A stretch of DNA of 64,000 nt from a bacterium (GTDB lineage Bacteria; Patescibacteriota; Minisyncoccia; Phycocordibacterales; Phycocordibacteraceae): NCBI GenBank assembly GCA_037200965.1, contig JBBCGK010000001.1, positions 352,001-416,000 on the forward strand, in the 5' to 3' direction. This document shows, piece after piece, positions 29,696 through 47,542 of the stretch; positions within the stretch are counted from its first letter, which is position 1; every line of letters begins with the position of its first letter. Both the position numbers and the translations under genes were made by a program. The notes beneath the pieces are model-generated. The model was given only the letters and a program-made list of their open reading frames with translations. It was not told where the DNA came from and made no database searches.

Positions 29696-30676
29696 CTACT
29701 CTCTTGAGCGCAGAAGCATGGAAAGGCGGTCGGAGAAAGCTTTAAGAAGCGTGTCGTCGGCTATGGAAAGAGGAAGAACTTCAGCTCCGCTGGCCTCCCT
29801 GAGAGCCTTTACGCGCACCTCGATCTCCCCTTTCGAATCAATCAGGTCGGTTTTTGAGAGTACGACGAATTCCCTTTTCCCCTCGAGCTCGCGTCCGAAG
29901 CCTTTGAGCTCGTCCCGCACCACCCTATAGGCCGCAACCACGTCATCTTGCTCAGCCGAGACAAGATGTACAAGAAATCCGGTGCGCTCGATATGTTTTA
30001 GGAATTTGGTACCGAGACCTCGGCCAGACGAGGCTCCTTCGATAAGGCCCGGGACGTCGGCAAGAATGAAGCCATAGAAGTCACCAAGGTTCGGCTCAAG
30101 GGTGGTGAAGGCATAGGCGCCGACTTTGGACTTTGAGCTGGTAAGTGCGTTGAGGAGCGAGGACTTCCCTGCGTTCGGGAAGCCTATGAGACCCGCGTCC
30201 GCGATAAGTTTGAGGGTCAGTTCGATATCCCCAGCCTCTCCCGGTTTCCCCGGCGTTGCCCGGTCAGGATTCCTATTCTCGCCGCTTTTAAAGTGAGGGT
30301 TGCCAAAGCCTCCGGCACCCCCGCGAAGGATTACGATTCTCTGTCCTTCCTCGAGAATTTCGTACTCTTCCTTTGTCGTGCGATTTTTCGCGACGGTACC
30401 CACCGGCACCCTGAGTATCGCCGGCTCCCCGTCCGCACCGTGTTTGTCGTTATTACCGCCCGCCTCCCCGTCACCCGCACGGACTTTTTTCGTGAATCGA
30501 TAGGTTGCGAGCTGTGCGAGGTCGCGTACGCCTTCAAGTATCACGTCACCCCCCTTCCCGCCGTCTCCTCCGGACGGCCCCCCCTTGTCTTTCCCAAACG
30601 CATGGAGCCACCGGACGACTCCGTCGCCTCCCCTCCCCGCTTTCGCCTGCACCCGAACCTCGTCTACGAATGCCAT
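29696..30676 (-). CDS. obg: GTPase Obg/CgtA (short form lacking C-terminal OCT domain)
   Basis: Gly-rich Obg fold (GGDGGKGGDV), then G-domain GFPNAGKSSLL (G1) and DVPGLIEGAS (G3). Confidence 0.85.
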   Translation of the reverse strand: MAFVDEVRVQAKAGRGGDGVVRWLHAFGKDKGGPSGGDGGKGGDVILEGVRDLAQLATYRFTKKVRAGDGEAGGNNDKHGADGEPAILRVPVGTVAKNRTTKEEYEILEEGQRIVILRGGAGGFGNPHFKSGENRNPDRATPGKPGEAGDIELTLKLIADAGLIGFPNAGKSSLLNALTSSKSKVGAYAFTTLEPNLGDFYGFILADVPGLIEGASSGRGLGTKFLKHIERTGFLVHLVSAEQDDVVAAYRVVRDELKGFGRELEGKREFVVLSKTDLIDSKGEIEVRVKALREASGAEVLPLSIADDTLLKAFSDRLSMLLRSRE

Positions 30677-30700
30677 ATGGATTCACCCTAACACACTCTT

Positions 30701-30728
30701 TTCACCCACGCTCGTATCATGGTATAAT
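30701..30728 (+). promoter_or_regulatory. candidate promoter for mntA/hepT: -35 TTCACC, 16-bp spacer, extended -10 TGgTATAAT; start codon 7 nt downstream (leaderless)
   Basis: tgg-TATAAT at 30720-30728; ATG at 30735. Confidence 0.4.
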
Positions 30729-30734
30729 GTATCT

Positions 30735-31022
30735 ATGCAAACGATTGACTCAATAAAAAAGAAGGCGGCGGCGGTGCTGCCTGATTATGGTGTAACGGAG
30801 GCATACTTATTCGGTTCCCTCGCGCGAGGTGACGGACGTGAAGATAGCGACGTCGATATTCTCGTACGATTCGATGGTGTACGCGGACTTTTCGCATTTG
30901 TTGCGGCTAAACTCGCGATGGAGGAAGCGCTTGGAGGCTGCTCCGTCGATCTGGTGCAGATAGACGCGCTTCGTCCGGAGTTCCGGGCCGATATAGAGCG
31001 CGAGAAGATACGGCTGTTCTAA
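30735..31022 (+). CDS. mntA: MntA-type nucleotidyltransferase antitoxin (type VII toxin-antitoxin)
   Basis: MQTIDSIKKK...; the motif GSLARGDGREDSDVDILV corresponds to the minimal nucleotidyltransferase GS...DxD signature. Immediately upstream of the HepT-like gene. Confidence 0.75.
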   Translation: MQTIDSIKKKAAAVLPDYGVTEAYLFGSLARGDGREDSDVDILVRFDGVRGLFAFVAAKLAMEEALGGCSVDLVQIDALRPEFRADIEREKIRLF

Positions 31023-31026
31023 ACCT

Positions 31027-31377
31027 ATGGGAAAGGATGTCCGGGTTTATTTGCACGACATACTCGAATACAGCGACCGTATTATCGCAAGCATCGGGCA
31101 GGTAACGTTTGATGAGTTCCGAAACAGCCTCGATCTTCAGGACGCTACGATGCGGCGATTCGAAGTTGTCGGCGAAGCTGTAAAACGCGTACCGGAAGCG
31201 GTGCGCGTCCGATATCCAGATATCGAATGGGCACAAGCGACCGGATTCCGTGATGTGCTTGCCCATGACTATACTGAAATCGTCATCGACGATCTATTTT
31301 TCACCGCGAAAAACGACCTCCCTGTATTTCGCGAGCAGATTCGGCAGGTACTCGAGGAGCTGAAGGCTAAAGATTAG
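31027..31377 (+). CDS. hepT: HepT-like (DUF86) RNase toxin
   Basis: Rx4HxY motif present as FRDVLAHDY. Size and genetic pairing with mntA. Confidence 0.75.
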   Translation: MGKDVRVYLHDILEYSDRIIASIGQVTFDEFRNSLDLQDATMRRFEVVGEAVKRVPEAVRVRYPDIEWAQATGFRDVLAHDYTEIVIDDLFFTAKNDLPVFREQIRQVLEELKAKD

Positions 31378-31533
31378 CGGATTCAATTTACTCAATACGG
31401 ACGAGCCACGCCGCATCATCAAGACGCGACCATTCGTCCGCAATGACAAGGCCTTCTTTTTTGCCTTTTATATATCCTTCTTTGAGGCGCTTGTACAATT
31501 CCGCGCGGGGCATAAAGGTGAATATCGCTCTCA

Positions 31534-34071
31534 CTATTCAGTACTCATTACCCATCCCTCCTTAAGAAGAGATTCTGCTTTCTTATACTTCATCGTCTGC
31601 GTCTCATCTCCCTTTCTGATAGTTACCATGTCGTTCCTGCCCGGAGTCGAACCCTTCACGATCGTGGCCGGTGCGCTTGTGCCGTTTCCCGCGGATTCGC
31701 TCCCGCCCGCGGCCATAAGCTGCGCGCGAACTCTCTCCTCTTCGGCGCGGATGCGCGCGGCCTCGGCCGGGATGATGCGCGGAAGCGCCTGCCGCACGGC
31801 CTCGGCGATGCTCGCCTCCATGTGCCGGAATCGCGCAAGCCCTTCCTTCCTGTATTCGATGAGCGGGTCTCTCTGGCCATAGGCACGAAGGGATACGGAA
31901 CGGCGGAGGTATTCCATGGTCTCCAGCTGCTCGAGCCAGAAGGCATCGGTGACCTGGAGGACAAGCCTGCGAAGAAGCTGCACGAAATCCTCCTGACCGT
32001 ACTCGGCGCGCTTCGCTTCGTACGCTGCCTGCGCCGCTTCGTCGCCCATGATGAGTTCGAGTACGAGCGCTTCGATGTCCTCGGCGCTTCCCGTGAGTGC
32101 GGCACGGCGGCGGGCATAGACCGCGAGGCGCTGGGTGTTCATCACGTCGTCGTACGCGAGCACCTGCTTGCGGGAATCGAAGTTGAAACCTTCGATGCGC
32201 TTCTGCGCGGTCTCAAGCGTCGAGGTGATCATGGAGCTCTCGATCGGCTCGTCCTCGGGAATGCCGAACGTGCCCATGACTCTCTTTATGGTATCCGCCG
32301 CAAAGACCCGCATGAGCTTGTCTTCAAGCGATACGAAGAATCTCGTCTCGCCCGCGTCTCCCTGGCGTCCGGCACGACCCCGAAGCTGGTTGTCGATGCG
32401 GCGCGCCTCATGCCGCTCGGTGCCGATGACCGCGAGGCCGCCAAGCGCGACGACCTCCTCGCGCTCCTCGGGAAGCGCCGGAACGCCCCCGAGCTTGATG
32501 TCGACGCCGCGTCCGGCCATGTTGGTCGCGACGGTCACCTTCCCCTTCCGGCCCGCCTGCGCGATGATCTCTCCTTCGCGTTCGTGGTTCTTCGCATTCA
32601 GCATCTCGTGCGGGACTCCCGCGTTCGTAAGATAGGCGCTCACGATCTCGTTATCCTCGATCGAGACGGTGCCGACGAGGACCGGCTGGCCCTTCCCGTG
32701 GAGTTCCTTGATGTATTTCGCGACCGCCGCGTACTTCCCCGCCGCGGTCTGGTAGATGAGGTCGTTGTGGTCGGCGCGCTTCGTAGGCCTGTTGGTCGGA
32801 ATCACGACCACCTCGAGCCCGTACACGGTATAAAACTCCTCTTCGGACGAGAGCGCGGTGCCGGTCATGCCCGCAAGCGCGTCATACATGCGGAAATAGT
32901 TCTGGAAGGTCACGCTCGCGTACGTGCGCGTCTCCCGCTGCACCGCGACGCCTTCCTTGGCTTCGACCGCCTGATGAAGCCCTTCGGACCAGCGCCGGCC
33001 CGGCTGAAGGCGCCCGGTGAATTCGTCGACGATCACGACCTCCCCGTCCTTGACCACATACTCCTTATCATTATGAAAGAGCGCCTTGGCGCGCACGGCC
33101 GTCTCAAGATGGTGCGCGTATTTCATGCCGCCTTCGGTATACAGATTTTCGAGACCGAGCACCTTCTCGGCCTTCCCGATGCCTTCTTCGGTGATCTGGA
33201 TCGCCCGCTGCTTCTCGTCGATGGTATAGTCCTCACCTTCCTTGAACCCTTCGACGATCTTCGCGAAGCGCACGTAGAGGTCTCCCGATTCCGCGGCCGG
33301 ACCCGAGATGATGAGCGGGGTACGCGCCTCGTCGATAAGGATAGAGTCGACCTCGTCGACGATGGCGTAGTGGTGCCCGCGCTGGGAAATCTGGGAAGCG
33401 TCGTAGGCGGTGTTGTCGCGCAGATAATCGAAGCCCAGCTCGTTATTGGTCGCGTAGGTGACATCCGCCGCGTACGCCTCCTTCTTGGTCGCGGGTCGGA
33501 GATAGTCGTAGAACACCCGGAAGGAGCCAAGTTCGTCGCGCGCCTTGTCTTCCTCCTTCTCGACGTGCGATTCGTCGTAGAGATAGCTCCCGCCTGAGGT
33601 GACGACGCCCACCGTTATGCCGAGATAGGCGTATACCTGCCCCATCCAAGTCGCGTCGCGCCTGGCGAGGAAATCGTTCACCGTGACGATATGCACGCCC
33701 TTGCCTGCAAGCGCCCGAAGCACCGCCGGAAGCGTCGCGACCAGGGTCTTGCCTTCTCCGGTGCGCATTTCGGCGATCTTGCCGCGCGCAAGCGCGAGAC
33801 CGCCGATAAGCTGCACGTCGAAATGCCGTTCGTTTCGCGTCCTGCGGGCCGCTTCCCGCACGATGGCGAAGACTTCCGCGATAGCCTCGTCCGAGGGCTT
33901 TCCGTCCGCAACGCGCGTCCGAAGACCCTCAAGCCGGGCCGCAAGCGCTTCCCGAGGAAGCTCCAGAAGCTCGGATTCGAGCGCATTTGCCCGCGCAACC
34001 ACGGGCGCGGCTTCCTTCAGGAATCCTGCGGACTGGTTGCGGGAGAAGAGCCGGTTGAGGATATTGGCCAT
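31534..34071 (-). CDS. secA: preprotein translocase ATPase SecA
   Basis: 845 aa with DEAD-like motor motifs (MRTGEGKTLVATL, DEVDSILIDEARTPLIISG). ATG at 34071. Confidence 0.9.
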   Translation of the reverse strand: MANILNRLFSRNQSAGFLKEAAPVVARANALESELLELPREALAARLEGLRTRVADGKPSDEAIAEVFAIVREAARRTRNERHFDVQLIGGLALARGKIAEMRTGEGKTLVATLPAVLRALAGKGVHIVTVNDFLARRDATWMGQVYAYLGITVGVVTSGGSYLYDESHVEKEEDKARDELGSFRVFYDYLRPATKKEAYAADVTYATNNELGFDYLRDNTAYDASQISQRGHHYAIVDEVDSILIDEARTPLIISGPAAESGDLYVRFAKIVEGFKEGEDYTIDEKQRAIQITEEGIGKAEKVLGLENLYTEGGMKYAHHLETAVRAKALFHNDKEYVVKDGEVVIVDEFTGRLQPGRRWSEGLHQAVEAKEGVAVQRETRTYASVTFQNYFRMYDALAGMTGTALSSEEEFYTVYGLEVVVIPTNRPTKRADHNDLIYQTAAGKYAAVAKYIKELHGKGQPVLVGTVSIEDNEIVSAYLTNAGVPHEMLNAKNHEREGEIIAQAGRKGKVTVATNMAGRGVDIKLGGVPALPEEREEVVALGGLAVIGTERHEARRIDNQLRGRAGRQGDAGETRFFVSLEDKLMRVFAADTIKRVMGTFGIPEDEPIESSMITSTLETAQKRIEGFNFDSRKQVLAYDDVMNTQRLAVYARRRAALTGSAEDIEALVLELIMGDEAAQAAYEAKRAEYGQEDFVQLLRRLVLQVTDAFWLEQLETMEYLRRSVSLRAYGQRDPLIEYRKEGLARFRHMEASIAEAVRQALPRIIPAEAARIRAEEERVRAQLMAAGGSESAGNGTSAPATIVKGSTPGRNDMVTIRKGDETQTMKYKKAESLLKEGWVMSTE

Positions 34072-34383: not shown

Positions 34384-35424
34384 TTATCCGAACGCGCGCA
34401 CTTCGCGCACGACAACGATGCCGGTAGCGTCAAAAACTTTTTTCGCGATCATATCGGCGAACGCTTCCACATCCGCCGCGGTCGCGCCGTCCTCGGCGAC
34501 GAGCACGAGCGCTTGCTTCTCGAAAAGGCGCACGCGCTTCTCCCGGAAACCCCGGAGTCCGAGTACGTGATCCAGAAGCCACGCAAGCGGCACCTTAAGA
34601 TCGCTGGTTTCCGGCATGGAGAACAGCGGCATTTCCGGGTAGCGCGCCTGAAGCGCACGGGCATGTGTTTCGGGAAGGATCGGGTTCTCGAAAAACGACC
34701 CCGCAGTACCTTCCTTCGAGAGGTCGGGGAACTTATCGGCACGAATGGACAGGATGGCCGTCCGGATATCGGCGAGCGTCGGGGCCGGATTCTCCCCGAG
34801 CACCCGCGCGACATCTTTATAGGAGCGGTTCGGATCCCGGTACGAGAAATTCGGCGCCGGAACGCTCGAAAGCGTGAACGTCGCGCGCATGATGACGTGT
34901 TTCCTTCCCTCGTGCTTAAAGAAACTGTCGCGGTATCCGAACCGGCATTCATCGCGGGTGTATATTCGGGACGCAAGGAGCGCAGTATCGAACGCTTCCG
35001 CGCGTACAAGCGTCCCGGAGAGCGCGGCCCCGTACGCGCCTATATTTTGTACGACGGCGCCGCCGACGGTACCCGGAATCCCGGAAAGATTCTCAAGACC
35101 CCACAGGCAGCGCAGGACGCATATGCGTACGAGTTCGTCCCACAGGATTCCCGCTCCGGCCGTGACTTCGACGCTGCCGCTTCGAAGCTCAGAAAACGTG
35201 ACGCCCGGAATCCGCGGACGAAGGACGACGCCTGGGTATCCCGCATCGCGCGCAAGCACGTTCGATCCTCCGCCTAGTATGAAAACGGGAAGGCCGAGCT
35301 TGCGGGCTTCAAGAACCGCTGTTTCGATATCTTCTCCGGTATCGCAGTCGATGACGAAGCGCGCGTCACCGCCGATCCTGAGGGTGGTGAGATTCCGAAG
35401 CGAGACGTTCTCCCGGATCGTCAT
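34384..35424 (-). CDS. murB: UDP-N-acetylenolpyruvoylglucosamine reductase
   Basis: FAD-binding N-terminus (LTTLRIGGDARFVI...ILGGGSNVL) and MurB C-terminal domain. Its start ATG overlaps the stop of the upstream gene (ATGA). Confidence 0.85.
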   Translation of the reverse strand: MTIRENVSLRNLTTLRIGGDARFVIDCDTGEDIETAVLEARKLGLPVFILGGGSNVLARDAGYPGVVLRPRIPGVTFSELRSGSVEVTAGAGILWDELVRICVLRCLWGLENLSGIPGTVGGAVVQNIGAYGAALSGTLVRAEAFDTALLASRIYTRDECRFGYRDSFFKHEGRKHVIMRATFTLSSVPAPNFSYRDPNRSYKDVARVLGENPAPTLADIRTAILSIRADKFPDLSKEGTAGSFFENPILPETHARALQARYPEMPLFSMPETSDLKVPLAWLLDHVLGLRGFREKRVRLFEKQALVLVAEDGATAADVEAFADMIAKKVFDATGIVVVREVRAFG

Positions 35425-37607
35425 TGGCCCTGGGCCGCCATCGCGTCGATCTGCAGGAGAAGATCCCGGCCCTGGGCCGCGGCCTCGGGATGCGCCGCGA
35501 TGCCTTCCTGGACCGCCTTGCGCGCGCTTGAAAGGTCGCGCGCGTTCACGTATCCGGCCGCGAGGCGGAACCAGGCGTTCGCCGCCCCGTTCTGATCGAT
35601 CACGTTCTGCGCCAGGCTTCGTATAAGGCGCGGCCAGTCCTGAAAACGATAGTACGCGAGAATGAGTTTCTCGTTCGCCACGCTTGTCGTCCCGAATGCG
35701 TCCTGGAGAATGGCATCCGCTGCGACGCTGTCGCCGGTGATGACGCTTCCGACCGCCGCATAGACGGCAAGATCGCTGAAGGAAGGATCGAGCGCATAGG
35801 CTTTCTCATACGCTTCCTTCGCACCGGCCATATCTCCCGCTTCCCAGAGGGTATTTCCTTCTTCTATATATATGCCCTGCTTCCTCGGCGACAGCGCCTC
35901 GGCGGCTTCATCTTGTTTGAGTGCGTTCTGGCTGTCCCCGGCGACCCGATAGGCGAGGGCGTATTCGAGGCGCAGGCGCGGATCAAGCGGCAGACGTTCG
36001 ACGAGCTCTCCCATCTTGGCGATCGCGAAAGAGGCAATCGCGGCTTTATCCTCCTGACCCGTGCTTTCGCTGCTTATGGCGCTCACTGAAAACGACACGA
36101 GCTGTTCGTTTATCTCCTGGGAAGCGAACGCCGGGTGCGTGAGCAAATCCCTGAACGAGGCAAGCTGCCCCGCAGGCCCTTGCGCCGAAGGCGTGATGGC
36201 TTCGATAAGCTGGCTCCCCGCCCGGATACCGGGCACGTTCACGAACCAGAGAACGGCGAGGAGCAGCACCGCGGCCACCGGGAGAACCATGGTCGACGCC
36301 GACTCGTCGGCGACCTCCGGCAGGCGTTCAAGGTACGGAACGGGGCGGGCGCTCTTCCCGTGGATATACGCGATGACTAGAACGAACAGGAGCGAGGATA
36401 TGAGATTGTCGAAGACGAACATCGAATGCACCCCGTACGCAACCAGAAGCGACGACAGGCCGACTTTCTCCGCGATCGTGAATTCGGGACGCCGCAGCAG
36501 GAGCCAGAATGCGGCGATGAAGAGGCTTATATACAGAAGGAACGCCGGAAGACCGCCCGCGACGAGCCAGTCGACGAAGGAATTATGCGCCCGGTCAAAC
36601 CACGCCTCCTGGTCATACAGCGACGGGCGATAGAATTCGCTGAAGACGTAGTTGTAGCCTTCCTGACCCCAGCCGAGCACCGGATGCACGAGGAATCCTT
36701 CGTACGCCATGTGCCAGAGCGCGAAGCGCGTCGAGCCCTGGTCGATCGAAATGGACGCGATGCGCGCAAGCGCGGAATTGTTCGTAACGAACGACGAATC
36801 GCGTACCAAGAAGAATCCGCCGCACAGGACGAGGACTGCGATAACCGCTCCCGCGCCGTACCGCCGAGTTTTCCCGCCCGACAACAGCGCGGCGAGAAGA
36901 CCGGCAACCGCGGCTCCGATGACGACCCCGAGGACCGCCCCGCGCGTCTCGGTCTTAAAGAGGATATAGGTCTCAAAGAGGATAAGCAGCGGGAGCGCAT
37001 ACCGGAGCCACGAACGGCGTTCGATCTCGCCCCGCAGAAGCCAGGCGGCTATGCATATATGGAACAGGAGATATACCGCAAGATACGTGGCGTTCCCGAG
37101 AGATGCGTCCAGACGCCCGCTTCCCTGGTGTATCGCGGCGACGCCCAGAAGCTGCAGGACGCCGTGGAGGCACACGATCACGGAAACCCCGAGCGAGGTA
37201 AGCCAGAGCCGGCGCCACAGATCCTTGGCTGACAGTACCGAGCTCGCTACCACAAAAAGGCCGAGAAGATGGACGAGCGTGATCCATCCCTCCATCCGCT
37301 CGAAGTTGCTCCAGAGCGCCTTTTCGGGGTTTATCGCGAAGCAGTCGGCGAGGAACATCCAAAGCACGAATACGGCGAAGAGCGCGCCAAGCCAGGAGAA
37401 GCGCGGGCGGTATCGCTTGTCGGCAAACGCGAGCACCGCCCATCCGGCGAGCGCGATCTCGACCAGGATACGGAAGGCGAACGCCTTTCCGGTTATGAAC
37501 GGGAAATACAGGCTGTTCGTGACCAAAAGCGGAACAAAGGGCAGAAGGAAGAGCGCCCCGACCGCCGTCCACCACCCTATCTGAGCTGCCGTCCCTTTCA
37601 CATGCAT
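35421..37607 (-). CDS. O-antigen ligase (Wzy_C)-like polytopic membrane protein with C-terminal TPR region
   Basis: About 12 hydrophobic helices. Wzy_C-like loop (FKTETRGAVLGVVIGAAVAGLL...RFALWHMAYEGFLVHPVLGWGQEGY). The C-terminal 250 aa are soluble with TPR-like A/Y-rich repeats. Confidence 0.75.
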   Translation of the reverse strand: MHVKGTAAQIGWWTAVGALFLLPFVPLLVTNSLYFPFITGKAFAFRILVEIALAGWAVLAFADKRYRPRFSWLGALFAVFVLWMFLADCFAINPEKALWSNFERMEGWITLVHLLGLFVVASSVLSAKDLWRRLWLTSLGVSVIVCLHGVLQLLGVAAIHQGSGRLDASLGNATYLAVYLLFHICIAAWLLRGEIERRSWLRYALPLLILFETYILFKTETRGAVLGVVIGAAVAGLLAALLSGGKTRRYGAGAVIAVLVLCGGFFLVRDSSFVTNNSALARIASISIDQGSTRFALWHMAYEGFLVHPVLGWGQEGYNYVFSEFYRPSLYDQEAWFDRAHNSFVDWLVAGGLPAFLLYISLFIAAFWLLLRRPEFTIAEKVGLSSLLVAYGVHSMFVFDNLISSLLFVLVIAYIHGKSARPVPYLERLPEVADESASTMVLPVAAVLLLAVLWFVNVPGIRAGSQLIEAITPSAQGPAGQLASFRDLLTHPAFASQEINEQLVSFSVSAISSESTGQEDKAAIASFAIAKMGELVERLPLDPRLRLEYALAYRVAGDSQNALKQDEAAEALSPRKQGIYIEEGNTLWEAGDMAGAKEAYEKAYALDPSFSDLAVYAAVGSVITGDSVAADAILQDAFGTTSVANEKLILAYYRFQDWPRLIRSLAQNVIDQNGAANAWFRLAAGYVNARDLSSARKAVQEGIAAHPEAAAQGRDLLLQIDAMAAQGQ

Positions 37608-37622
37608 ATTGCAAAAACTATA

Positions 37623-38678
37623 TCACGCCGAAGCAAGCAGCCAGGCTACGTTCCCGGCAAGCACGGCACAGACCAGGCCGTAGCGCACGGCAGGATGCCG
37701 TACCCGCGACAGCGCAAGCACCGCGATGAGCGCGAAAGCGGGCGCGATGATGAAAAACAACCGGGACGAAACATACCCCCAGAAGAACGCCATGCAGGAG
37801 GCAGGGATGGCGATAAGCAGGAAGCGCTTCTGCCACACGGCAAGCCCACGGACGCGGGCGAGACCGAACGGCACGAGAAGCCAGCCAAGGCCGAGAAGCG
37901 CCGCGAGGCTTTTCGCGATGTTGAAGGCCGTGAATTCGGTCTTGAAACCGGCTTCGCCCGCCTGGTGATACCAGGAGAGATACGTGTAGTGATAACGTGT
38001 ATAGACAAAGATTTCCCAGGCAAGATTCACGACCGCGAAGACACCGACATATACGAAAAGGTCGCGGAACCTCTCGCGCCACGAAAGAGCCGGGTGCGCG
38101 AGAATCGCAAGGCCGAAGGCGAGCGCCGCGACGGCGCTGTACTCCTTCCAAAGGAAGCCGAGGGTGATGACTGCGCTGTTTATAAGGAGCACTCGCCATC
38201 CGGGAGCGCGCAGGTACCGGAGCGTGAGCGCGAACGAAAGCACGCAAAAGAAGAGCGCGCCTGTTTCCGTATACAGATCAACGCCGTACCTGAGCACGGG
38301 ATAGCTCGCGCCAAGCAGGAGCGCAAGGAGCGCGCTCTCCTTCGCAGCGAATCCGAAGGCGCGCCCGAGCGCGTAGCAGGCCGCTATGAGAAGGAAATAA
38401 AAGACGACAACCTGCACGAGAAACGCGGTTCCCGGAGGAAGCGCCGTTTCGAGCGCCGCGACCGAAAGCGGAGCGAGCGGCTTCAGGATTCTCCCGGGAT
38501 TCGCGGCCGCATCCGGCGCGCCCCTGAAAAGTTCCGCGGTTTCAAGATAGCTCGCGTAGTCGCTATTGAGCGTAAGCCCGGCGGCATCGAGCTTAAAGAC
38601 CGCGAGTCCCGCGCCGATGATTAGAACGCATACAAGCGGCGTGAGGGCCGTATGGGAGATAGCGCGCAGCGGCTCCAT
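37623..38678 (-). CDS. polytopic membrane protein, putative GT-C-type glycosyltransferase
   Basis: 351 aa with 9 or more hydrophobic helices. Lies in an operon with the O-antigen-ligase-like gene and a methyltransferase. Family assignment tentative. Confidence 0.5.
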   Translation of the reverse strand: MEPLRAISHTALTPLVCVLIIGAGLAVFKLDAAGLTLNSDYASYLETAELFRGAPDAAANPGRILKPLAPLSVAALETALPPGTAFLVQVVVFYFLLIAACYALGRAFGFAAKESALLALLLGASYPVLRYGVDLYTETGALFFCVLSFALTLRYLRAPGWRVLLINSAVITLGFLWKEYSAVAALAFGLAILAHPALSWRERFRDLFVYVGVFAVVNLAWEIFVYTRYHYTYLSWYHQAGEAGFKTEFTAFNIAKSLAALLGLGWLLVPFGLARVRGLAVWQKRFLLIAIPASCMAFFWGYVSSRLFFIIAPAFALIAVLALSRVRHPAVRYGLVCAVLAGNVAWLLASA

Positions 38679-38680
38679 AG

Positions 38681-39319
38681 TCAGGATACGCGCTTCCGGG
38701 CCGCGATAAAGACGCCTCCGGACAGCAGATGATCTTCGGGAGCGGAACGGTTGATATCGCCATACGAGCGCACGACGAGCCAGTCCATCCGTGAAAAGAG
38801 AAGCGCGAGAAGATAAAGGAGACCCTTCGTAACTTTTCCTCCCCGCACGTCGGACTGGAAGAATATCCGCTGAAGCTGCACGCCAAGGGCGTAGAACGGC
38901 CCGCTGTCCCCTGCCGCTTCGACGATTTCGAACCGGTGGAACAGCTTCCGGAGGCCGTACGGCGTGAAGCGCCAGTAATCCCCGGGCGCGTCGTGGACCG
39001 GAAACGCGAAGCGCGTCGTAAGGAGGGCGAGGCCGCCGGGCGCAAGCACCCGGTGGATTTCCTCGACTACTTGCCTCGGATCATCCGCATGTTCGAGCAT
39101 CTCGGCGCATACTACCCGCTCGAAACTTCCGTCCGGAAACGGCAACCGGTGCGCGTCCCCGAGCACGTCCGGCTTTCGCGCGGGATCGATATCGACCGCG
39201 ATGCTGTCCGGAAAATAGTCCTTGTGCTCGCCGCTCGTCGCCCCGATGTCGAGCGTGTGCGCGCCGGTGGCGTACTTCGCGAGGAATCCGCGTATCTTGC
39301 CGTGCGTGAGTTTTATCAT
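38681..39319 (-). CDS. class I SAM-dependent methyltransferase
   Basis: Motif I LDIGATSG and the post-I acidic loop AVDID. Methyltransf_11-like size. Confidence 0.7.
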   Translation of the reverse strand: MIKLTHGKIRGFLAKYATGAHTLDIGATSGEHKDYFPDSIAVDIDPARKPDVLGDAHRLPFPDGSFERVVCAEMLEHADDPRQVVEEIHRVLAPGGLALLTTRFAFPVHDAPGDYWRFTPYGLRKLFHRFEIVEAAGDSGPFYALGVQLQRIFFQSDVRGGKVTKGLLYLLALLFSRMDWLVVRSYGDINRSAPEDHLLSGGVFIAARKRVS

Positions 39320-39404
39320 GAGCCCTGCCGTAAAGCCGCACTATACCACGCGGCCGGATACGGTGCGGAAATGGTATAGTCTCCATGACATGCCCTCTCC
39401 CCAT

Positions 39405-39782
39405 ATGCGCAAGCTCGCGCGCTATGTCGTTTCCGGCGGAACCGCAACCGCGGTGAATTTGCTCGTGCTCTATCTTCTCGTCGATCACGCGGGTATGCAT
39501 TATCTTTCCGCCTCGGTCCTCTCCTTCCTCAGCTCGACCGTCGTGAGCTTTACGCTTCAGAAGTTCTGGACGTTCCGGAACCGGGCGACCGAACGCATGC
39601 ACTTCCAGTTCGCGCTCTACGCACTCATCACGGTCACGAACATTTGCATCAATACCGCTCTCATGTACGGTTTCGTGGACGTGCTTGGCGTTTGGTACCT
39701 CGCCGCGCAGGTGCTCTCGGGCGGACTCATCGCCATTGCAAGTTATTTTACGTACCAGAAGCTCGTCTTCGCGTCCGCATGA
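39405..39782 (+). CDS. GtrA-family membrane protein
   Basis: MRKLARYVVSGGTATAVNLLVLYLLV... with 4 predicted TM helices. GtrA-like N-terminal motif (RYxxxGxxxxxxN). Alternative ATG at 39390. Stop overlaps the GT2 start (ATGA). Confidence 0.7.
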   Translation: MRKLARYVVSGGTATAVNLLVLYLLVDHAGMHYLSASVLSFLSSTVVSFTLQKFWTFRNRATERMHFQFALYALITVTNICINTALMYGFVDVLGVWYLAAQVLSGGLIAIASYFTYQKLVFASA

Positions 39783-40465
39783 AGAAACTTTCCGTCATTA
39801 TTCCCGCGTATAACGAGGAGCGCACGCTTGCCGAAATCGTGCGGCGCGTACGGGCCATCGACCTGTCGCCGCTTGAAATCGAGGTTATCGTCGTCGACAA
39901 CAATTCCAAGGATTCGACCTACGCCATCGCTTCCGGCATCCCCGGCATTCGCGTCATCAAGGAAAAAACGCCCGGCAAAGGCGCGGCGGTGCGCGCGGGC
40001 TTTGCTGCCGCGGCCGGGGACATGGTGATCATCCAGGACGCCGATCTCGAGTACGAGCCGAAAGACTATGCCTCCGTGATCGCGCCGATCCTCTCCGGGA
40101 AGGTGAAGGCGGTCGTCGGCGTGCGCACGATCATTCCCGAAGACGCCCCGCCCCGCGGAGTGGCATACGATATCGGAAATACGCTCATCACGCTTGCGAC
40201 GAACATTCTCTACGGAGGCAATGCCGAAGAATATACGGGCTGTTATAAGGCGTTTACGAAAGAGCTTATCGATTCCATACAGGTACGGGAGCATGGTTTC
40301 GCCTACGAGCACGAGCTCGTATGCAAAGTACTGAAGCGCGGAAATGCGGTCGCGAGCGTCCCGATCCACTATTACCCCCGCAGCTACGACGAAGGCAAAA
40401 AGATCAACTGGAAGGACGGGTTCCGCATCCTTTGGGCGATCATCAAATACCGCTTCGTCGATTAG
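39779..40465 (+). CDS. family 2 glycosyltransferase (polyprenol-phosphate sugar transferase-like)
   Basis: MKKLSVIIPAYNEE, VVDNNSKD and IIQDADLEY (DxD) motifs. Confidence 0.8.
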   Translation: MKKLSVIIPAYNEERTLAEIVRRVRAIDLSPLEIEVIVVDNNSKDSTYAIASGIPGIRVIKEKTPGKGAAVRAGFAAAAGDMVIIQDADLEYEPKDYASVIAPILSGKVKAVVGVRTIIPEDAPPRGVAYDIGNTLITLATNILYGGNAEEYTGCYKAFTKELIDSIQVREHGFAYEHELVCKVLKRGNAVASVPIHYYPRSYDEGKKINWKDGFRILWAIIKYRFVD

Positions 40466-40489
40466 GAAGAAGGCGGGTATACTTCCCTC

Positions 40490-41584
40490 ATGCCACGCGG
40501 CAAGACACTCGCGCTTCTTCTGGGTCTTGCTATCGCCATCATTCTTGCCGACGTATTCATCTTCGGCATCGGACACGTCGACACCGGCACCTACCTTTCG
40601 CAGATCGACGGCTGGCGGCACTTCACGTTCGCGGTCACGGACAATCCGTGGGACGCGTTCCGGGCGTTCAAGCCGCTCTACGGCGTTCTCGGGCTCGTCG
40701 GGTGGTTTCTTTCGCCGGTCGCCGTGCTGCTTGTCGTAAACGCGGGGTTCCTCTTCGGGCTCTCGGTCGCGGCCTACCTTTGTCTCGAACGACTCGGGTT
40801 CTCAAAGGAAGAGACGCTTCTCGGCACGTTCTGGGTCATGACCGCCTATCCGGCGCTCGGCCTCGGGTTTGCGGCTGGTACCGATATTTCGGGATGGTTC
40901 TTCTGCGCCGCGACCATCGCGATCGCGCTTCAGGCGATCAGGCTCGAAAGCGATCGCCTGCTTATGCTCGCGTCGCTCGTCGGTTTTCTCGGCGCGACGG
41001 GGAAAGAGACCGGGGTTCTGGGACTCGTATTTGCCGGTACCTATCTTCTGCTCGTATTCTTCGATCGGGGATTTCGCCGCACCCTCCGCTCGCTCGCGGC
41101 GCTCTGCCTTCCCTTCCTGGTCCTAGAAGGACTGCTGCTGTTTGCCATAAGCCAGGCGGGACTTCCCGGATTCTTCGGCTGGGTCACGTTCAATAACGCC
41201 CTGTATGCCGATATCCATACGCTTAAATACTTTATAGGAGCGGAACTCGCGACGTTCGGTATCCTGTGGCTGCCGGCCGCTCTTGGCGCATATGCGCTTC
41301 TTGCGCGCCGCATTCGGACCGGTGCGCGGGAGTGGAAACTCCTCGCCGCGCTCGGGTTAGCCGCGCTCATACCGATCGCGTGGCCGACATTCACCGACCG
41401 CATCCTCTACATCCAATGGATCGCCCTTGTTCCGCTCGCGCTCTATGGCGCGCGGTTCCTTGGTCTCCCCCGCTATCGCTGGATCCTCTACCTTGCACCC
41501 GTCGCCGTAAGCGCGGTGTTATTGTCCATCGGAGGGCATGACGGGCTGTACCGCTTCGCGCACTATCTTGCGAATTTCCTATGA
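40490..41584 (+). CDS. polytopic integral membrane protein (putative glycosyltransferase/oligosaccharide polymerase)
   Basis: 364 aa, 10 or more hydrophobic helices, in a glycan gene cluster. No specific motif. Confidence 0.45.
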   Translation: MPRGKTLALLLGLAIAIILADVFIFGIGHVDTGTYLSQIDGWRHFTFAVTDNPWDAFRAFKPLYGVLGLVGWFLSPVAVLLVVNAGFLFGLSVAAYLCLERLGFSKEETLLGTFWVMTAYPALGLGFAAGTDISGWFFCAATIAIALQAIRLESDRLLMLASLVGFLGATGKETGVLGLVFAGTYLLLVFFDRGFRRTLRSLAALCLPFLVLEGLLLFAISQAGLPGFFGWVTFNNALYADIHTLKYFIGAELATFGILWLPAALGAYALLARRIRTGAREWKLLAALGLAALIPIAWPTFTDRILYIQWIALVPLALYGARFLGLPRYRWILYLAPVAVSAVLLSIGGHDGLYRFAHYLANFL

Positions 41585-42852
41585 AAAGATTCCGAAATAC
41601 TCCGCTCGTGCGGCTTCTCGAGCGCTATACCAAAACCGATATAACCTACCTCGCGTCAGGCGGTTTCTGGCTGTCGCTTGATCAGGTAGCGACGGGGCTT
41701 GCCGCGTTCCTGCTGGCGATCGCGTTCGCGCATTTCGTCCCGAAGGAAACGTACGGAACCTACCGGTATCTTTTGTCCGCGTTCTGGGTACTGACCGCCT
41801 TTTCCCTCACCGGCCTCCCTACCGCGCTTTCCCAGGCGGTCGCCCGGGGGCGCGAGGGGGTATACCGTTCGTCATTCGCGACGAGCCTCGCATGGGGCCT
41901 GCCGTTTGGCGTTATCGCGCTTGGCATAAGCGCCTACTACTTCGTGAACGCGAACGCGCAATTCGGGTACGGGTTCCTCATCATCGCCGTTCTCGGTCCC
42001 CTCATGCAGCCCGCGTATTTGTTCGGGTCGTATCTCATCGGCAAGAAAGAGTTTCGTGTGGTCGCCATCTCGGGCGCGATATTCGCCGTTGCGCCAGCCG
42101 CCGCGCTTTTCGCGACCATGTTCGCGACGCAGAGTCCGCTCGTATTTCTCGTTATCTATCTGCTCAGCAGCGTTGTTACGGGCTTCGCGCTCGCGGCATT
42201 CACGTATATCAGGTACCGTCCGAACCGCGTGAACGATCCGGAATTCCGGGCGCTCGGCGCGCACTTCAGCGTCATGAATCTCCTCACGACGCTCGCGGGA
42301 CAGGTTGATAAGCTCGTCGTCTTCCATTATCTCGGCGCGGTCGAGCTGGCCGTCTACGCATTCGCCACCGCTCTTCCCGAACAGCTTAAGAACGTATTCG
42401 GCGGCGTCTCGACCCTGGCGCTTCCCAAGTTCGTCGCGCGGCCCTTTGAAGAGGTGCGGGCGAATTTCTGGAACCGCCTGTGGCTTTTGACCGCGGGCCT
42501 TGCGCTCGCGGCGCTTGCCTATGCGGCGGCCGCACCGATGCTCTTCCACATTTTCTTTCCGACCTATGCCGAAGCCATCTTCTATTCGCAGGTGTACGCG
42601 CTCGCGCTCGTTCCGATCGGGAGCGCCCTTCCCTCGACGCTCCTGCAGGCCCAGGAAGCGAAGCGGGAACTCTATATCCTCAATATTGTGTCCCCTGTTT
42701 TCCAGATCCTCGCGCTCGTTCTTCTTACGAGCATGTACGGCCTTATAGGCGCCATCGCAGCGCGCATCGCGGGACGGGTATGGACGTTCGCCGTGAGCGG
42801 CGCGCTCCTTGAAGCGTATGCGTGGCGCAGGAAGCGCTTCTCGGGCGCATAG
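41581..42852 (+). CDS. polysaccharide flippase (Wzx/MOP-superfamily)
   Basis: 423 aa with about 12 TM helices. Polysacc_synt-like organisation. Start overlaps the upstream stop. Confidence 0.65.
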   Translation: MKRFRNTPLVRLLERYTKTDITYLASGGFWLSLDQVATGLAAFLLAIAFAHFVPKETYGTYRYLLSAFWVLTAFSLTGLPTALSQAVARGREGVYRSSFATSLAWGLPFGVIALGISAYYFVNANAQFGYGFLIIAVLGPLMQPAYLFGSYLIGKKEFRVVAISGAIFAVAPAAALFATMFATQSPLVFLVIYLLSSVVTGFALAAFTYIRYRPNRVNDPEFRALGAHFSVMNLLTTLAGQVDKLVVFHYLGAVELAVYAFATALPEQLKNVFGGVSTLALPKFVARPFEEVRANFWNRLWLLTAGLALAALAYAAAAPMLFHIFFPTYAEAIFYSQVYALALVPIGSALPSTLLQAQEAKRELYILNIVSPVFQILALVLLTSMYGLIGAIAARIAGRVWTFAVSGALLEAYAWRRKRFSGA

Positions 42853-42855
42853 CAT

Positions 42856-43464
42856 ATGCTTATGTTCAATTTCCTCAGAATCCGCATATTCGACTTCCTC
42901 AAGAAGAGGAATATGGACCGGGTGTATCAACGCGGCGGCATGTGGGGCCGGGAGCAGGGCGTAGCGGATATCAAAGCCGCCATCGGACTTATAAACAGCC
43001 GGCGCTATGCCCGCTGCCTTGACCTTGGCACGGGAAGGGGCCAGTATGCGGAAGAAGCCGCGCCCCATTGCGGAGAGGTCCTGGCAATCGATATTTCTCC
43101 GGAAGCTGTCGAACGCGCGAAGGAGCGGCTCGGACATATTCCGAATATCCGCTTCTCGGTTGCGAATCTGCGCACATTCGGATCCTCCGAACCTTTCGAT
43201 CTCGTCATCCTCGGGGACACCCTGTATTATCTCGGCGATCTCCGCTTCCCGCTCGAATTCCGGAAGGCCATAGCGAATATCGTACGACTCGTCGCTCCCG
43301 AAGGACGCATCCTCATGGTGAATTATATTTCGCCCGGGCGGAGCGAAAAACAGCTGCGGGAATATGCGGCCCTGTTCCAGGCCGAAGGAATGCGCATTGA
43401 GCATAACGATATATTTTCAGACGGCCCGAAGCGGTGGCTTCAGACCGTGCTCGTGCGGAACTGA
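42856..43464 (+). CDS. class I SAM-dependent methyltransferase
   Basis: Motif I LDLGTGRGQYA and post-I AIDIS. Confidence 0.7.
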   Translation: MLMFNFLRIRIFDFLKKRNMDRVYQRGGMWGREQGVADIKAAIGLINSRRYARCLDLGTGRGQYAEEAAPHCGEVLAIDISPEAVERAKERLGHIPNIRFSVANLRTFGSSEPFDLVILGDTLYYLGDLRFPLEFRKAIANIVRLVAPEGRILMVNYISPGRSEKQLREYAALFQAEGMRIEHNDIFSDGPKRWLQTVLVRN

Positions 43465-43513: not shown

Positions 43514-44797
43514 TTATTCCGGATACTGATTCCCGGCTCCTCCGTTATAGAGTTCGGCTATTTCGCCTGCGGTGAGAGCCCGGGACCAGACGCCGCACTC
43601 GTCCTGCAATTGGTCCCCGGAGATATTGCCTCCGGCCTGGTACCCGAGCCCGAACGCCGTGGAGCTGTCGTTCTTCGTTTCCGCTACGGTTCCGGTGCCG
43701 ATGCCCGCGCCGTTCACATAGATCGTTCCCGTCGTTCCGCTCGCGGTGGCGGCGATGTAATACCAGGCGCCGTCCGAAAGCGTCTGGGGGATGGTAACTT
43801 GCTCGTTGCTTGAGCCGTTGGTGCCGAAAAACAATGCGCCTGTTCCCCCGGCATTTGCATATGCTAGACGGTACGAATTCGCATCAGACGGCCCGCCCCA
43901 CTTCGCGAGGATCGGATACATGTCCGGCGGCTGCGACCCGAATTTGACCCAGCACGCGAGCGTCATGTCTCCCGTCACGTCGAGCCCGTTCTGGGTTAAG
44001 TCGTCGGCGGTGAAATAATGCCCTGCCCTGCCCGCGCCCGTAATCCGGGCGGCATTATGAACGAGGCCTGGCGCGTACACGGTGCCGTTGTTTGCCAACG
44101 TATTGCCGCCGACCGAATCGATGGCATCGCCGCCCGTCTCGTCGAGTTTCCAGTAGGAAACGAGCGAGCCGTCCGAATACGCGGCAGGCACCGGAGCGGG
44201 CGGAGTATCATCGGGAGGAGTATCAGGCTCGTCGTTGCCGCCCCCATCGCCTTCATCATCGTCGTTCTCGTCATCGTTCCCTCCCGAACTGCCTCCGCCG
44301 GAACTATGATGAGAAGAATGGTGGGTAATAATGCGGCCGGAGGTTGACGCAGGTTTCGGAGCTCCGTATCCGAGCGCATAGGAACCTAAGTAACGGGCGC
44401 CGTCATACAGAAACGTAAACACATCGGCACTCCCCGCGGCAGCGCTTAAGGTCGGCGCTTCGCCCCCGAGCCACAGGATCGAACCGGGCCATGCGACGGT
44501 ACGGTTTCCGGACGCATCCTGGTTGAGGATAAGCTTGTATTCGCTTCCCGGCTGCGCGCCTCCGAACGCCAGGCCGATATCGCTCGTGATGAGGTTGAGC
44601 AAATGCACGTTCCCCGTATTCCAGTCGATCGTAAGCGACGAGGGAATCACGTCGGTAACTATCTTTTGCTGGGAGGGCGAAGTGGTTCCGGCGGCGAATA
44701 AGGAAAGAGCGTACGGCGGCTCCGCCGCGAGCGCTGCCGAGGGCAGAGCGAATAAAAATGCCGCTACCAGGAGCGGAACGAACGACGTATGTCTCAT
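43514..44797 (-). CDS. secreted protein with C-terminal LamG/concanavalin-A-like lectin domain
   Basis: Signal peptide MRHTSFVPLLVAAFLFALPSAALA. His/Gly/Asp-rich linker. C-terminal SYWKLDETGGDAIDSVGGNTLANNGTV...LACWVKF...YVNG, typical of the Laminin_G_3 family. Confidence 0.65.
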   Translation of the reverse strand: MRHTSFVPLLVAAFLFALPSAALAAEPPYALSLFAAGTTSPSQQKIVTDVIPSSLTIDWNTGNVHLLNLITSDIGLAFGGAQPGSEYKLILNQDASGNRTVAWPGSILWLGGEAPTLSAAAGSADVFTFLYDGARYLGSYALGYGAPKPASTSGRIITHHSSHHSSGGGSSGGNDDENDDDEGDGGGNDEPDTPPDDTPPAPVPAAYSDGSLVSYWKLDETGGDAIDSVGGNTLANNGTVYAPGLVHNAARITGAGRAGHYFTADDLTQNGLDVTGDMTLACWVKFGSQPPDMYPILAKWGGPSDANSYRLAYANAGGTGALFFGTNGSSNEQVTIPQTLSDGAWYYIAATASGTTGTIYVNGAGIGTGTVAETKNDSSTAFGLGYQAGGNISGDQLQDECGVWSRALTAGEIAELYNGGAGNQYPE

Positions 44798-45985: not shown

Positions 45986-46009
45986 GAAAACCGCCTTTCA
46001 GCGGTTTTC
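45986..46009. terminator. hairpin GAAAACCGC-ctttca-GCGGTTTTC with T-run, in an AT-rich non-coding stretch
   Basis: Perfect 9-bp stem; TTTTCTGGG follows on the plus strand. Confidence 0.4.
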
Positions 46010-46335
46010 TGGGAAGGTGTGGCCGTAATGCGCTGTTTGGTCTTGCCTTAACTCAGTCATTCCTCTGACCTCAAGCTCTCATCGTAGGACAGCTTTTTCC
46101 AAGTCCCCTATTTCTTCTTACGCTTTGTGTCGCCAAGGGCGGCACCTGCGACTGACTTCTGGACTGTACGCTTTTGCGGCTTCTTCAGCAACTTCGATGC
46201 CATACTTGCCACACGTTTGCTCGTGTTTCCCATGATAGTGCTTGCCGAGGAGGATTAGTAGAAGTGACCACCTTCTATCCTCGGTCTCTACATTTTACTC
46301 TTGTAAGAATTTACAGCGAGGTGGATAACTGATTC

Positions 46336-46869
46336 CTACAGGAATGCGATGAAACCCAGTAAACCAAGTCCTACCGCGAGAAGGATGAAGGTTGGAACCA
46401 CACTGAAATTAATATAGCGTCTCTCAGATTTCCTTAGCTCGTCAACAGACTCAAACTGCTGTAGTTTCGGATTCAGAATATTTTTCCTTGAATATACATA
46501 CCTGCCCCGATTCCATGATAGACGTCTCCCATGTCTAAATGTAAAGATGATTGCAAAGAGCGATGCAAGAAACATTGCCAGAGTTAAAAGACCGAAAAAC
46601 AGAGTCCATATACCTTCAAAACCATCTGTATTGATTAGCTTATCCGTCACTTCAAAATAAAGGTAGGTTATGACATATACAATGAGTATGTCAGGCAGCT
46701 TCCTTAGTGAGATATATGCTATGTATCCGTACCCAAAGGGAGAGATGGTCCATCCTTTAATATATTTCAGATCATTATCTGAAAGCTGATTCTCATTTCT
46801 TACCTGCTTTCTTTCAAACCATGTAAAGCTTGACAGGTATTCGCGAGTCTCCTTAAATCCAAATTTCAT
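46336..46869 (-). CDS. hypothetical membrane protein (177 aa, 2 TM) in AT-rich island downstream of RHS toxin
   Basis: About 33% GC. Hydrophobic helices LPDILIVYVITYLYF and IWTLFFGLLTLAMFLASLFAIIFTF plus FILLAVGLGLLGFIAFL. Candidate orphan immunity protein. Confidence 0.45.
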   Translation of the reverse strand: MKFGFKETREYLSSFTWFERKQVRNENQLSDNDLKYIKGWTISPFGYGYIAYISLRKLPDILIVYVITYLYFEVTDKLINTDGFEGIWTLFFGLLTLAMFLASLFAIIFTFRHGRRLSWNRGRYVYSRKNILNPKLQQFESVDELRKSERRYINFSVVPTFILLAVGLGLLGFIAFL

Positions 46870-46973
46870 AACCTGCTTAAATTCACTTCACTATAATAAA
46901 TCCTTGTCAGGATTAATTCCGCTAAGATTAATTTCCTCTAGGTCAATCTGAAAAGCTCTTGCTTGCTGTTGCA

Positions 46974-47309
46974 TTAGAGAAATAATCTCATATACAGCCA
47001 TCTGGTAGCCTCTGTCATAGTCTGTAGTCTCCGTATTGATTTTCTTATTGGAATTTCGCCAAGTTTGTATTCAATAATGTCGCCAGTACCTGGAAGTGCA
47101 AATTCCTCAAGTAAGAATCGAGGAATATAGTGATGATTCGATTGTTCGTAATCATTGATATAAACTCCTTTTTGTAGGATTCCATATATATAAAATACTA
47201 CTTTAGATAAAAGACGACTTCTTATCCTCCTATTTAGCATTACCATGATTAGCTTATTTGCTAATCTAAGTCTCGCGATGTTTATACGCTTTACTAGCAC
47301 CGATATCAT
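46974..47309 (-). CDS. hypothetical protein fragment (weak DUF4238-like HHYIPRF N-terminal motif)
   Basis: AT-rich ORF. NHHYIPRFLLEEF resembles the N-terminal motif of DUF4238 proteins (recalled, not verifiable here). Low-complexity basic N-terminus. May be a gene remnant. Confidence 0.25.
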   Translation of the reverse strand: MISVLVKRINIARLRLANKLIMVMLNRRIRSRLLSKVVFYIYGILQKGVYINDYEQSNHHYIPRFLLEEFALPGTGDIIEYKLGEIPIRKSIRRLQTMTEATRWLYMRLFL

Positions 47310-47332
47310 TAAGTAGGGACTGTTAGGTCTTT

Positions 47333-47542
47333 CTAGACACTAAGTGCTGTATACAAGCCATACAAGCCAATAACTATAAAGAATAGAGCGGATAATCTGA
47401 TCATTACCAGCATCCACTTTGGTTCTTGATTATTTTTTATAGAATAGACACTGCGTGTAAAATTCCAAATTACACCAGGATTTACAATCGATAGGAGACC
47501 GGCGATAAGAAAAATAGAATTTAATATTATTTGAGAAGTCAT
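47333..47542 (-). CDS. small 2-TM membrane protein, candidate immunity protein for the RHS C-terminal toxin
   Basis: 69 aa: MTSQIILNSIFLIAGLLSIVNPGVIW...MLVMIRLSALFFIVIGLYGLYTALSV. Starts 5 nt after the RHS stop. AT-rich. Confidence 0.5.
   Translation of the reverse strand: MTSQIILNSIFLIAGLLSIVNPGVIWNFTRSVYSIKNNQEPKWMLVMIRLSALFFIVIGLYGLYTALSV

Follow-up and report, generated by a model that had tools for sequence, protein, structure and literature searches.

A conserved WaaL-fold, probable glycan ligase with a predicted outward TPR domain, linked to murB and bordered by variable glycan islands in Patescibacteria

Among the enzymes that carry a Wzy_C domain, WsfB (Paenibacillus alvei) and PglL are described as ending in TPR motifs, and in Geobacillus the TPR protein, WsaA, is encoded apart from WsaB, as its neighbour and partner (PMC2943079). 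The surface-layer (S-layer) glycans bear O-methyl caps, and the S-layer glycosylation cluster of P. alvei also contains an asparagine-synthase (Asn-synthase) homologue, wsfA (PMC2943079). In the O-antigen ligase WaaL of Escherichia coli, the residues R215, R288 and H338 matter for function, and they are kept in PglL as R224, R298 and H349 (PMC3643930). Here we consider a 728-residue protein encoded on the minus strand, at 35421-37607, of a 64,000-nucleotide stretch of contig JBBCGK010000001.1 (the whole stretch that was analysed, called the window; all positions count from its first letter). This protein is a member of the Wzy_C/O-antigen-ligase-like superfamily (PF04932, WaaL fold). The window has a G+C content of about 60%, its genes match the uncultured-bacterium metagenome-assembled genome GCA_015655515.1, and the names on its close relatives, among the protein database matches and the contigs of a one-genome-per-species collection, are Kaiserbacteria, Paceibacterota, Parcubacteria or Patescibacteria throughout. 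The Patescibacteria, or Candidate Phyla Radiation (CPR), are mostly uncultured, ultra-small and often epibiotic, and their surface chemistry is essentially unknown.

The match to Wzy_C covers residues 211-360 and scores 65 bits against a Pfam cutoff of 31.7, and the models TPR_2 and TPR_14 exceed their cutoffs in the C-terminal tail, so that both parts of the fusion proposed in a preliminary description of this DNA are found by profile annotation. An AlphaFold2 model based on 120 homologues (pLDDT 91.6, pTM 0.89) has a membrane domain in residues 1-460 (36228-37607, minus strand), with 13 predicted transmembrane (TM) helices and the N-terminus inside, followed in residues 461-728 (35424-36227, minus strand) by a tail of 14 helices that make up about seven repeats. 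The tail is therefore present as first described, with a length of 268 residues instead of 250. With the N-terminus inside, the short loops hold 10 lysine and arginine residues on the inner side and 3 on the outer side. Since 13 helices lead from an inner N-terminus, the TPR tail is predicted to lie outside the cell.

The sequence of E. coli K-12 waaL, taken from NC_000913, was aligned to the profile of the membrane domain using hhalign. The overall probability of this alignment is low and the identity is 15%, yet three residues fall exactly in register: R222 (codon at 36942-36944) with R215 of WaaL, R294 (36726-36728) with R288, and H341 (36585-36587), which lies in a DRAHN motif, with H338 of WaaL and H349 of PglL. 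All three codons are on the minus strand, and all three residues are invariant in the 120 homologues. The conserved residues of the Wzy_C periplasmic loop, whose lack would have told against the preliminary assignment, are present. Conservation is concentrated on the outer face, where 40% of the loop positions are invariant, compared with 10% in the inner loops and 13% in the TM helices; examples of the conserved outer motifs are WSNFERMEGW, IHQGxxRxDAxxGN, TETRG, GWGQEGxNY, QExWFDRAHN and VFDN. The protein has the polytopic fold of WaaL, including a large outer loop before TM10, and WaaL is the nearest solved structure by fold comparison. Sequence searches of the PDB returned only TPR proteins for the full-length profile and no meaningful match for the membrane domain alone, either as a single sequence or as a ten-sequence profile, and a Foldseek comparison with the PDB was dominated by TPR matches. 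Because the PDB sequence searches did not find WaaL, the link to this enzyme is drawn from the fold comparison and the hhalign alignment.

The family of this protein is large. A word-indexed search gives more than 3600 matches, and the best 120 of them are 715-756 residues long, about 50% identical over 96-100% of their length (91% in one case), and all from Patescibacteria where a taxon is named. Using the membrane domain alone, an exhaustive HMMER search finds 2017 representatives of 50%-identity clusters at E<=1e-30. As many as 137 of the best 150 representatives have at least 690 residues, and the TPR fusion is therefore the rule in the family. Among the one-genome-per-species contigs, 227 species encode a relative. 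The NCBI label of the protein is already "O-antigen ligase family protein", a cluster look-up of ten distant members gave no names, and we found nothing specific in the literature on this ligase family in CPR/Patescibacteria. The protein is an uncharacterised addition to a known enzyme class and not a new class; its context is lineage-specific but conserved.

We turn to that context, using 80 species-level loci fetched from the 227 species genomes that encode a relative; the synteny counts below refer to these loci. Directly downstream of the ligase gene in the window is murB (34384-35424, minus strand), which encodes the 346-residue UDP-N-acetylenolpyruvoylglucosamine reductase; it matches Pfam FAD_binding_4 and MurB_C, and its score of 160 bits with the NCBIfam equivalog model TIGR00179 exceeds the cutoff of 144.5. 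The stop codon of the ligase gene and the start codon of murB overlap in an ATGA at 35421-35424 (minus strand), and direct reading of the sequence agrees with the preliminary description on this point. In the relatives, murB follows directly on the same strand in 76 of the 80 loci, and two of the four exceptions end at a contig edge. At least 53 of these 76 loci have the ATGA overlap and most of the others have a gap of 25 nucleotides or less; at one junction (locus L058) the stop codon TAA is followed immediately by ATG, with no fusion of the two genes. The order is also found in a family member of 41% identity. Since 76 of the 80 loci keep the order and at least 53 keep the ATGA, the arrangement is not due to chance. 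The conserved coupling implies that the ligase gene and murB are co-transcribed, and they are probably translationally coupled.

The conserved string is longer than this pair. Beyond murB, secA is found in 68, obg in 64 and gatB in 60 of the 80 loci, and in the window these genes, identified by Pfam, are located at 31534-34071, 29696-30676 and 28258-29688 (all minus strand, together 28258-34071). The synteny in relatives, which the preliminary description had named as a check, is kept on this side of the ligase, and its remark that the coupling to murB is unusual holds in comparison with textbook loci; in this lineage the coupling is the conserved norm, as part of a ligase-murB-secA-obg-gatB string. 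With secA, obg and gatB kept in the same block, the coupling to murB alone is no evidence of a shared chemistry. The overlap would provide a constitutive co-expression of the ligase with envelope housekeeping genes. In the window, a toxin-antitoxin pair of the HepT-like/nucleotidyltransferase (MNT) type, at 30735-31377 on the plus strand, splits secA from obg and interrupts a string that is otherwise conserved in the relatives.

The other flank of the ligase behaves differently. In every annotated locus the upstream neighbour is a glycan island, and its content differs by species. Six related loci were annotated gene by gene. The island of L004 has a fusion of a family 2 glycosyltransferase (GT2) with GtrA, a PMT protein, Wzx-like genes, family 4 glycosyltransferases (GT4s) and methyltransferases; that of L085 has an ABC transporter, NeuB, epimerases and methyltransferases; that of L086 has a GT9, a Wzx-like gene, an Asn-synthase and methyltransferases; that of L088 has GtrA, GT2 and a 464-residue PMT_2 protein; that of a 61%-identical relative has a TagF-like Glyphos_transf protein, nucleotidyltransferases and Wzx-like genes; and that of L089 has an ABC transporter with three methyltransferases. 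Searching the 80 loci with tblastn, the gene of the window's 351-residue GT-C-fold membrane protein and that of its 364-residue membrane protein are each found in one locus, and the Wzx-like gene recurs upstream in 30, on the opposite strand in all 26 matches that fall in loci where the upstream sequence extends for 3 kb or more. The particular glycosylation genes upstream of the ligase are not kept in the relatives, where a variable island takes their place. Asn-synthase homologues recur in these islands, at 1-1226 of L086 and 1873-3633 of L089.

Combining these observations, we propose that the 728-residue protein is the conserved enzyme that transfers variable, lipid-linked glycans en bloc as the terminal step of a surface pathway in Patescibacteria of the Kaiserbacteria/Paceibacteria type, a reading to which we give an even chance of being right. 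An intact WaaL-fold enzyme borders an island with either Wzx-type or ABC-type export, which argues for a terminal, glycan-tolerant ligase or oligosaccharyltransferase. The full-length identity between species stays at about 50% even where the glycan genes next door are different ones, and this points to a ligase or O-oligosaccharyltransferase (O-OTase) and not to a polymerase. It is established that Patescibacteria lack lipopolysaccharide (LPS); if this holds for the host, the acceptor cannot be a lipid A-core. As for what the acceptor may be, an outward TPR domain in Wzy_C enzymes has precedents that glycosylate proteins (WsfB, PglL and WsaB/WsaA), and this favours a protein acceptor. By analogy with WsfB, with its Wzy_C domain and C-terminal TPR motif, one or more surface proteins would accept the glycan, a proposition that we hold to be about evenly balanced.

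According to this proposal, the cytoplasmic glycosyltransferases and methyltransferases of the variable island would assemble a glycan on undecaprenyl diphosphate (Und-PP), and methyltransferases are indeed abundant both in the window's cluster and in the islands of the relatives. The glycan would be exported by the Wzx-like flippase, or in other species by the ABC transporter. The active site of the ligase would be located on the outer face of the cytoplasmic membrane, and the glycan would be transferred en bloc to its acceptor by means of R222, R294 and H341. The 13th TM helix would place the seven-repeat TPR domain outside, and we infer that this domain may present the acceptor. The Und-PP donor and the en-bloc mode of transfer are likewise inferred parts of the proposal.

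Several observations weigh against a protein acceptor or against the pathway as drawn. No S-layer gene is recognised next to the cluster and no acceptor was found in the window. The domains PglL_A and Wzy_C_2 give no match at E<=10 in the protein, and a conserved pilin neighbour is lacking, with pilin-like open reading frames (ORFs) near the ligase in 2 of the 80 loci. No initiating phosphoglycosyltransferase is found among the window ORFs scanned, so the Und-PP pathway is incomplete within the window. TPR domains are also found as scaffolds in polysaccharide export and as binders of partners other than proteins. Finally, a chemically invariant acceptor, such as a glycolipid, lipid II or peptidoglycan, would agree at least equally well with outer loops that are so strongly conserved, with a single conserved locus and with a housekeeping operon. 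On the protein side, large surface proteins are encoded 6-7 kb downstream. One of them, of 4837 residues (12486-26999, minus strand), has a SASA (sialate O-acetylesterase-like) domain, a Peptidase_S74 chaperone domain and a C-terminal bacterial-surface Ig-like domain, and it is a possible glycosylation target of the ligase. A giant protein of 2400-4600 residues is found at the same position, after gatB and an ORF of about 270 residues, in L004, L088 and the 61%-identical relative.

The most serious competitor, which we regard as tentative, is a glycopolymer ligase with a non-protein acceptor. Such an enzyme would take a teichoic-acid-like polymer or a secondary wall polysaccharide off Und-PP and attach it to a membrane glycolipid, to lipid II or to peptidoglycan; the TPR domain would serve to dock the enzyme onto the machinery of wall synthesis. 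The nearest solved structure being WaaL fits this idea, and TacL offers an example of a Wzy_C ligase that acts on a lipid acceptor in monoderm bacteria (PMC5727136); TacL (397 residues, PMC5727136) and E. coli WaaL (419 residues) are, however, too short to have a TPR domain, and the reported precedents for Wzy_C with TPR are protein O-OTases (PMC2943079). The translational coupling of the ligase gene to murB, found in 53 or more of the 76 species, can be counted in its favour, but murB is only one gene of a longer string, and its other members secA, obg and gatB suggest no chemical link. The single architecture (137 of 150 representatives of at least 690 residues) and the 40% of invariant outer-loop positions fit an invariant small acceptor, and the upstream island of one relative has the TagF-like Glyphos_transf gene and nucleotidyltransferases, whereas no genes for the synthesis of a lipid anchor were seen in the window. 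In a bolder version of the same idea, which we consider unlikely, the TPR-bearing WaaL-type enzyme would be an essential housekeeping ligase that fixes variable secondary glycopolymers onto peptidoglycan, lipid II or a universal membrane anchor. Wall attachment in monoderm bacteria is normally carried out by LCP enzymes. If the bolder version were true, the ligation route would be one not described for monoderm bacteria, and through the coupling to MurB the attachment of glycans would be matched to the supply of wall precursors.

A direct metabolic link behind the coupling appears improbable, or unlikely at best. It would make the protein an enzyme working on a MurNAc-containing lipid-linked intermediate, either modifying peptidoglycan precursors or acting in a SEDS-like manner, and it draws on the ATGA overlap being kept in more than 50 species. 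Gene order is a weak argument in these genomes, where the order of secA, obg and gatB is conserved too; moreover, the protein has the catalytic residues of WaaL and PglL, and in the annotated related loci the other flank is always a glycan-synthesis island and never mur or dcw genes.

Least probable is a Wzy-type polymerase that joins Und-PP repeat units flipped by the neighbouring Wzx-like protein: although some polymerases belong to the Wzy_C Pfam family and a Wzx-like flippase is encoded divergently upstream here and in 30 of the 80 relatives, each Wzy polymerase is specific for its repeat unit, with strong divergence from one serotype to the next, and we reject this candidate because the protein keeps about 50% identity while the neighbouring glycan genes change, is also found beside ABC-transporter clusters (L085 and L089) that need no Wzy, has the WaaL-type arginine, arginine and histidine residues conserved in register, and comes without any chain-length regulator (Wzz/PCP) seen in the window or the six annotated loci.

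The question of pilins can be treated separately. The preliminary description had suggested O-linked protein glycosylation next to pilin genes, as by enzymes of the PglL/TfpO type. The general part of this suggestion has its precedent in the O-OTases WsfB and PglL with Wzy_C and TPR (PMC2943079); the pilin part is unsupported. The window has two type-IV-pilin-like ORFs, at about 10600-10923 and at 2847-3623 (both minus strand), with the N-terminal sequence GFTLIELLVVIAIIGILSAV common to both. They are the only pilin-like genes of the window and, at about 10.9 kb and 2.8-3.6 kb, they are at least 23 kb away from the cluster and not next to it. Among the 80 related loci, 2 have a pilin-like ORF within 10 kb of the ligase. 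Together with the missing PglL_A and Wzy_C_2 matches, this leaves the link to TfpO/PglL and pilins weak. A pilin-specific O-OTase of the TfpO/PilO type was rejected for its lack of an adjoining pilin and of Wzy_C_2.

We now describe the rest of the cluster in the window, where the genes and the two divergent operons listed in the preliminary description are confirmed by Pfam annotation and coordinates. On the minus strand the order of transcription is a class I S-adenosylmethionine (SAM) methyltransferase of 212 residues (38681-39319; Pfam Methyltransf_11/23/25), the 351-residue membrane protein (37623-38678), the 728-residue Wzy_C and TPR protein, and murB. After a divergent spacer of 85 nucleotides (39320-39404), the plus strand encodes a small membrane protein of the GtrA family with 125 residues (39405-39782; GtrA_DPMS_TM, E 3.5e-23), a 228-residue GT2 resembling polyprenyl-phosphate-sugar synthases (39779-40465; Glycos_transf_2, E 4.5e-31), the 364-residue polytopic membrane protein (40490-41584), a Wzx-like flippase of the MOP family with 423 residues (41581-42852; Polysacc_synt, E 5.5e-17) and a NodS-like SAM methyltransferase of 202 residues (42856-43464; Pfam NodS and Methyltransf_11/25, with a sub-threshold similarity to NodS in NCBIfam). 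The gaps between genes within both operons are between -4 and 24 nucleotides. A scan for promoters and terminators gave nothing that exceeded the expectation from shuffled sequence, and a sigma-70 consensus was not found in the 85-nucleotide spacer. Adjoining the plus-strand operon is a gene for a secreted LamG_3 (concanavalin-like) protein with a linker rich in Ser, Gly, Asp and Pro (43514-44797, minus strand), which has no tblastn match in the 80 related loci.

The 351-residue neighbour of the ligase has the membrane fold of GT-C glycosyltransferases in a compact form, with the TM core only. Its family is small (62 matches, all from Patescibacteria), and several of its relatives (P0171, P0174-P0177 and P0179-P0182) are fusions of GtrA and GT-C of about 500-530 residues, among them proteins of about 519 residues, a Rosetta-stone link between the two components. 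The 364-residue protein has no Pfam or NCBIfam match, and BLASTP relates it to the 351-residue protein with 29% identity over 154 residues (E 1e-8), as a distant GT-C paralogue. The best NCBIfam similarities of the GT2, all below cutoff, are to AglJ, a Dol-P-hexose transferase, ArnC and PpgS. Taken together, the GtrA, GT2 and GT-C enzymes resemble a Gtr-type system, in which single sugars are added on the outer side of the membrane, and in the proposed pathway GtrA, GT2 and the two compact GT-C enzymes would form a side system taking these sugars from a polyprenyl-phosphate-sugar. As in the known Gtr-type systems (GtrA/GtrB/GtrC, CsbB/GtcA/YfhO and ArnC/ArnT), a GtrA-family protein, a GT2 like polyprenyl-phosphate-sugar synthases and one or more GT-C transferases are encoded together, and the GtrA-GT-C fusions in the relatives of the window's GT-C add to this likeness; the GT2 of the window differs in being short, with 228 residues.

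A second glycan-synthesis cluster is located at 56067-63968 (minus strand), with three GT4s, a Polysacc_synt_2 (CapD/PglF-like) dehydratase, a GT2, a polysaccharide deacetylase and two methyltransferases. An integrase (rve) gene of the insertion-sequence type (58330-59232, plus strand) splits the cluster, which continues past the end of the window. This cluster may supply cytoplasmic steps for the ligase substrate. Elsewhere in the window, a toxin-like RHS/YD-repeat protein of 2669 residues with SpvB and FG-GAP domains (47547-55556, minus strand) adjoins an island of 40% G+C at 46000-48000 that holds small unannotated ORFs. A transketolase is split in two genes (7777-9634, minus strand), one for the N-terminal half and one for the pyrimidine-binding/C-terminal half, which sit among genes of the pentose-phosphate pathway and glycolysis (aldolase, Rpe-like and GAPDH). 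No tRNA or Rfam features were found in the window.

Compared with the known members of the superfamily, the ligase shares with TacL of Streptococcus pneumoniae a Wzy_C enzyme in a monoderm setting, where a polymer linked to Und-PP is moved to its final anchor (PMC5727136). The acceptor of TacL is a glycolipid and the enzyme is too short for a TPR domain (PMC5727136), and a teichoic-acid context is not conserved around the window's ligase, given that the TagF-like gene is seen in one relative only. With PglL/TfpO (PilO) it shares the Wzy_C core with its two arginines and one histidine (PMC3643930) and, for PglL, the reported C-terminal TPR motif (PMC2943079), and a relaxed glycan specificity such as that of PglL/TfpO would fit the variable islands; the differences are the lack of PglL_A (PF15864) and Wzy_C_2 and the lack of a conserved neighbouring pilin or other target gene.

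WaaL (E. coli K-12; Cupriavidus metallidurans, PDB 7TPJ) has the same three residues in register and the same large outer loop, between TM9 and TM10. WaaL accepts the products of both Wzx-dependent and ABC-dependent pathways, and such a dual acceptance would fit the two export types found beside the ligase in the relatives. It differs from the protein considered here by the low identity and the absence of a PDB sequence-search match, by having neither the extra 13th TM helix nor the 268-residue TPR domain, and by its acceptor, which must be another one in a host that is not expected to make a lipid A-core. No waa or lpx genes are among the annotated ORFs of the window or of the six related loci.

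The ligase is also close to the S-layer O-OTase systems WsfB of P. alvei and WsaB/WsaA of Geobacillus stearothermophilus. They belong to monoderm hosts without LPS, as the host of the window is expected to be; WsfB is described as having Wzy_C with a C-terminal TPR (WsaB has its TPR partner as a separate protein), the genes accompany a surface-glycan cluster in which methyltransferases and export genes of the ABC or Wzx type are found, and the Asn-synthase homologues in the islands of some relatives are paralleled by wsfA (PMC2943079). This likeness is one of described architecture, and no S-layer gene is recognised beside the window's ligase. With its catalytic residues defined and its model confident, the enzyme provides a concrete starting point for questions of host attachment, phage evasion and bioconjugation. 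Unlike WsfB and WsaB, it is not part of the variable island but belongs to a housekeeping string, where it is translationally coupled to murB, and its family, found in Patescibacteria only, shows an unusual degree of conservation. In a large lineage of CPR bacteria, a single WaaL-type transferase with a predicted outward TPR domain is thus highly conserved within a housekeeping operon, and the glycan-building genes beside it are reshuffled between species. This pattern suggests that these cells have, as a core feature, a surface glycan that varies and an attachment system that stays constant.

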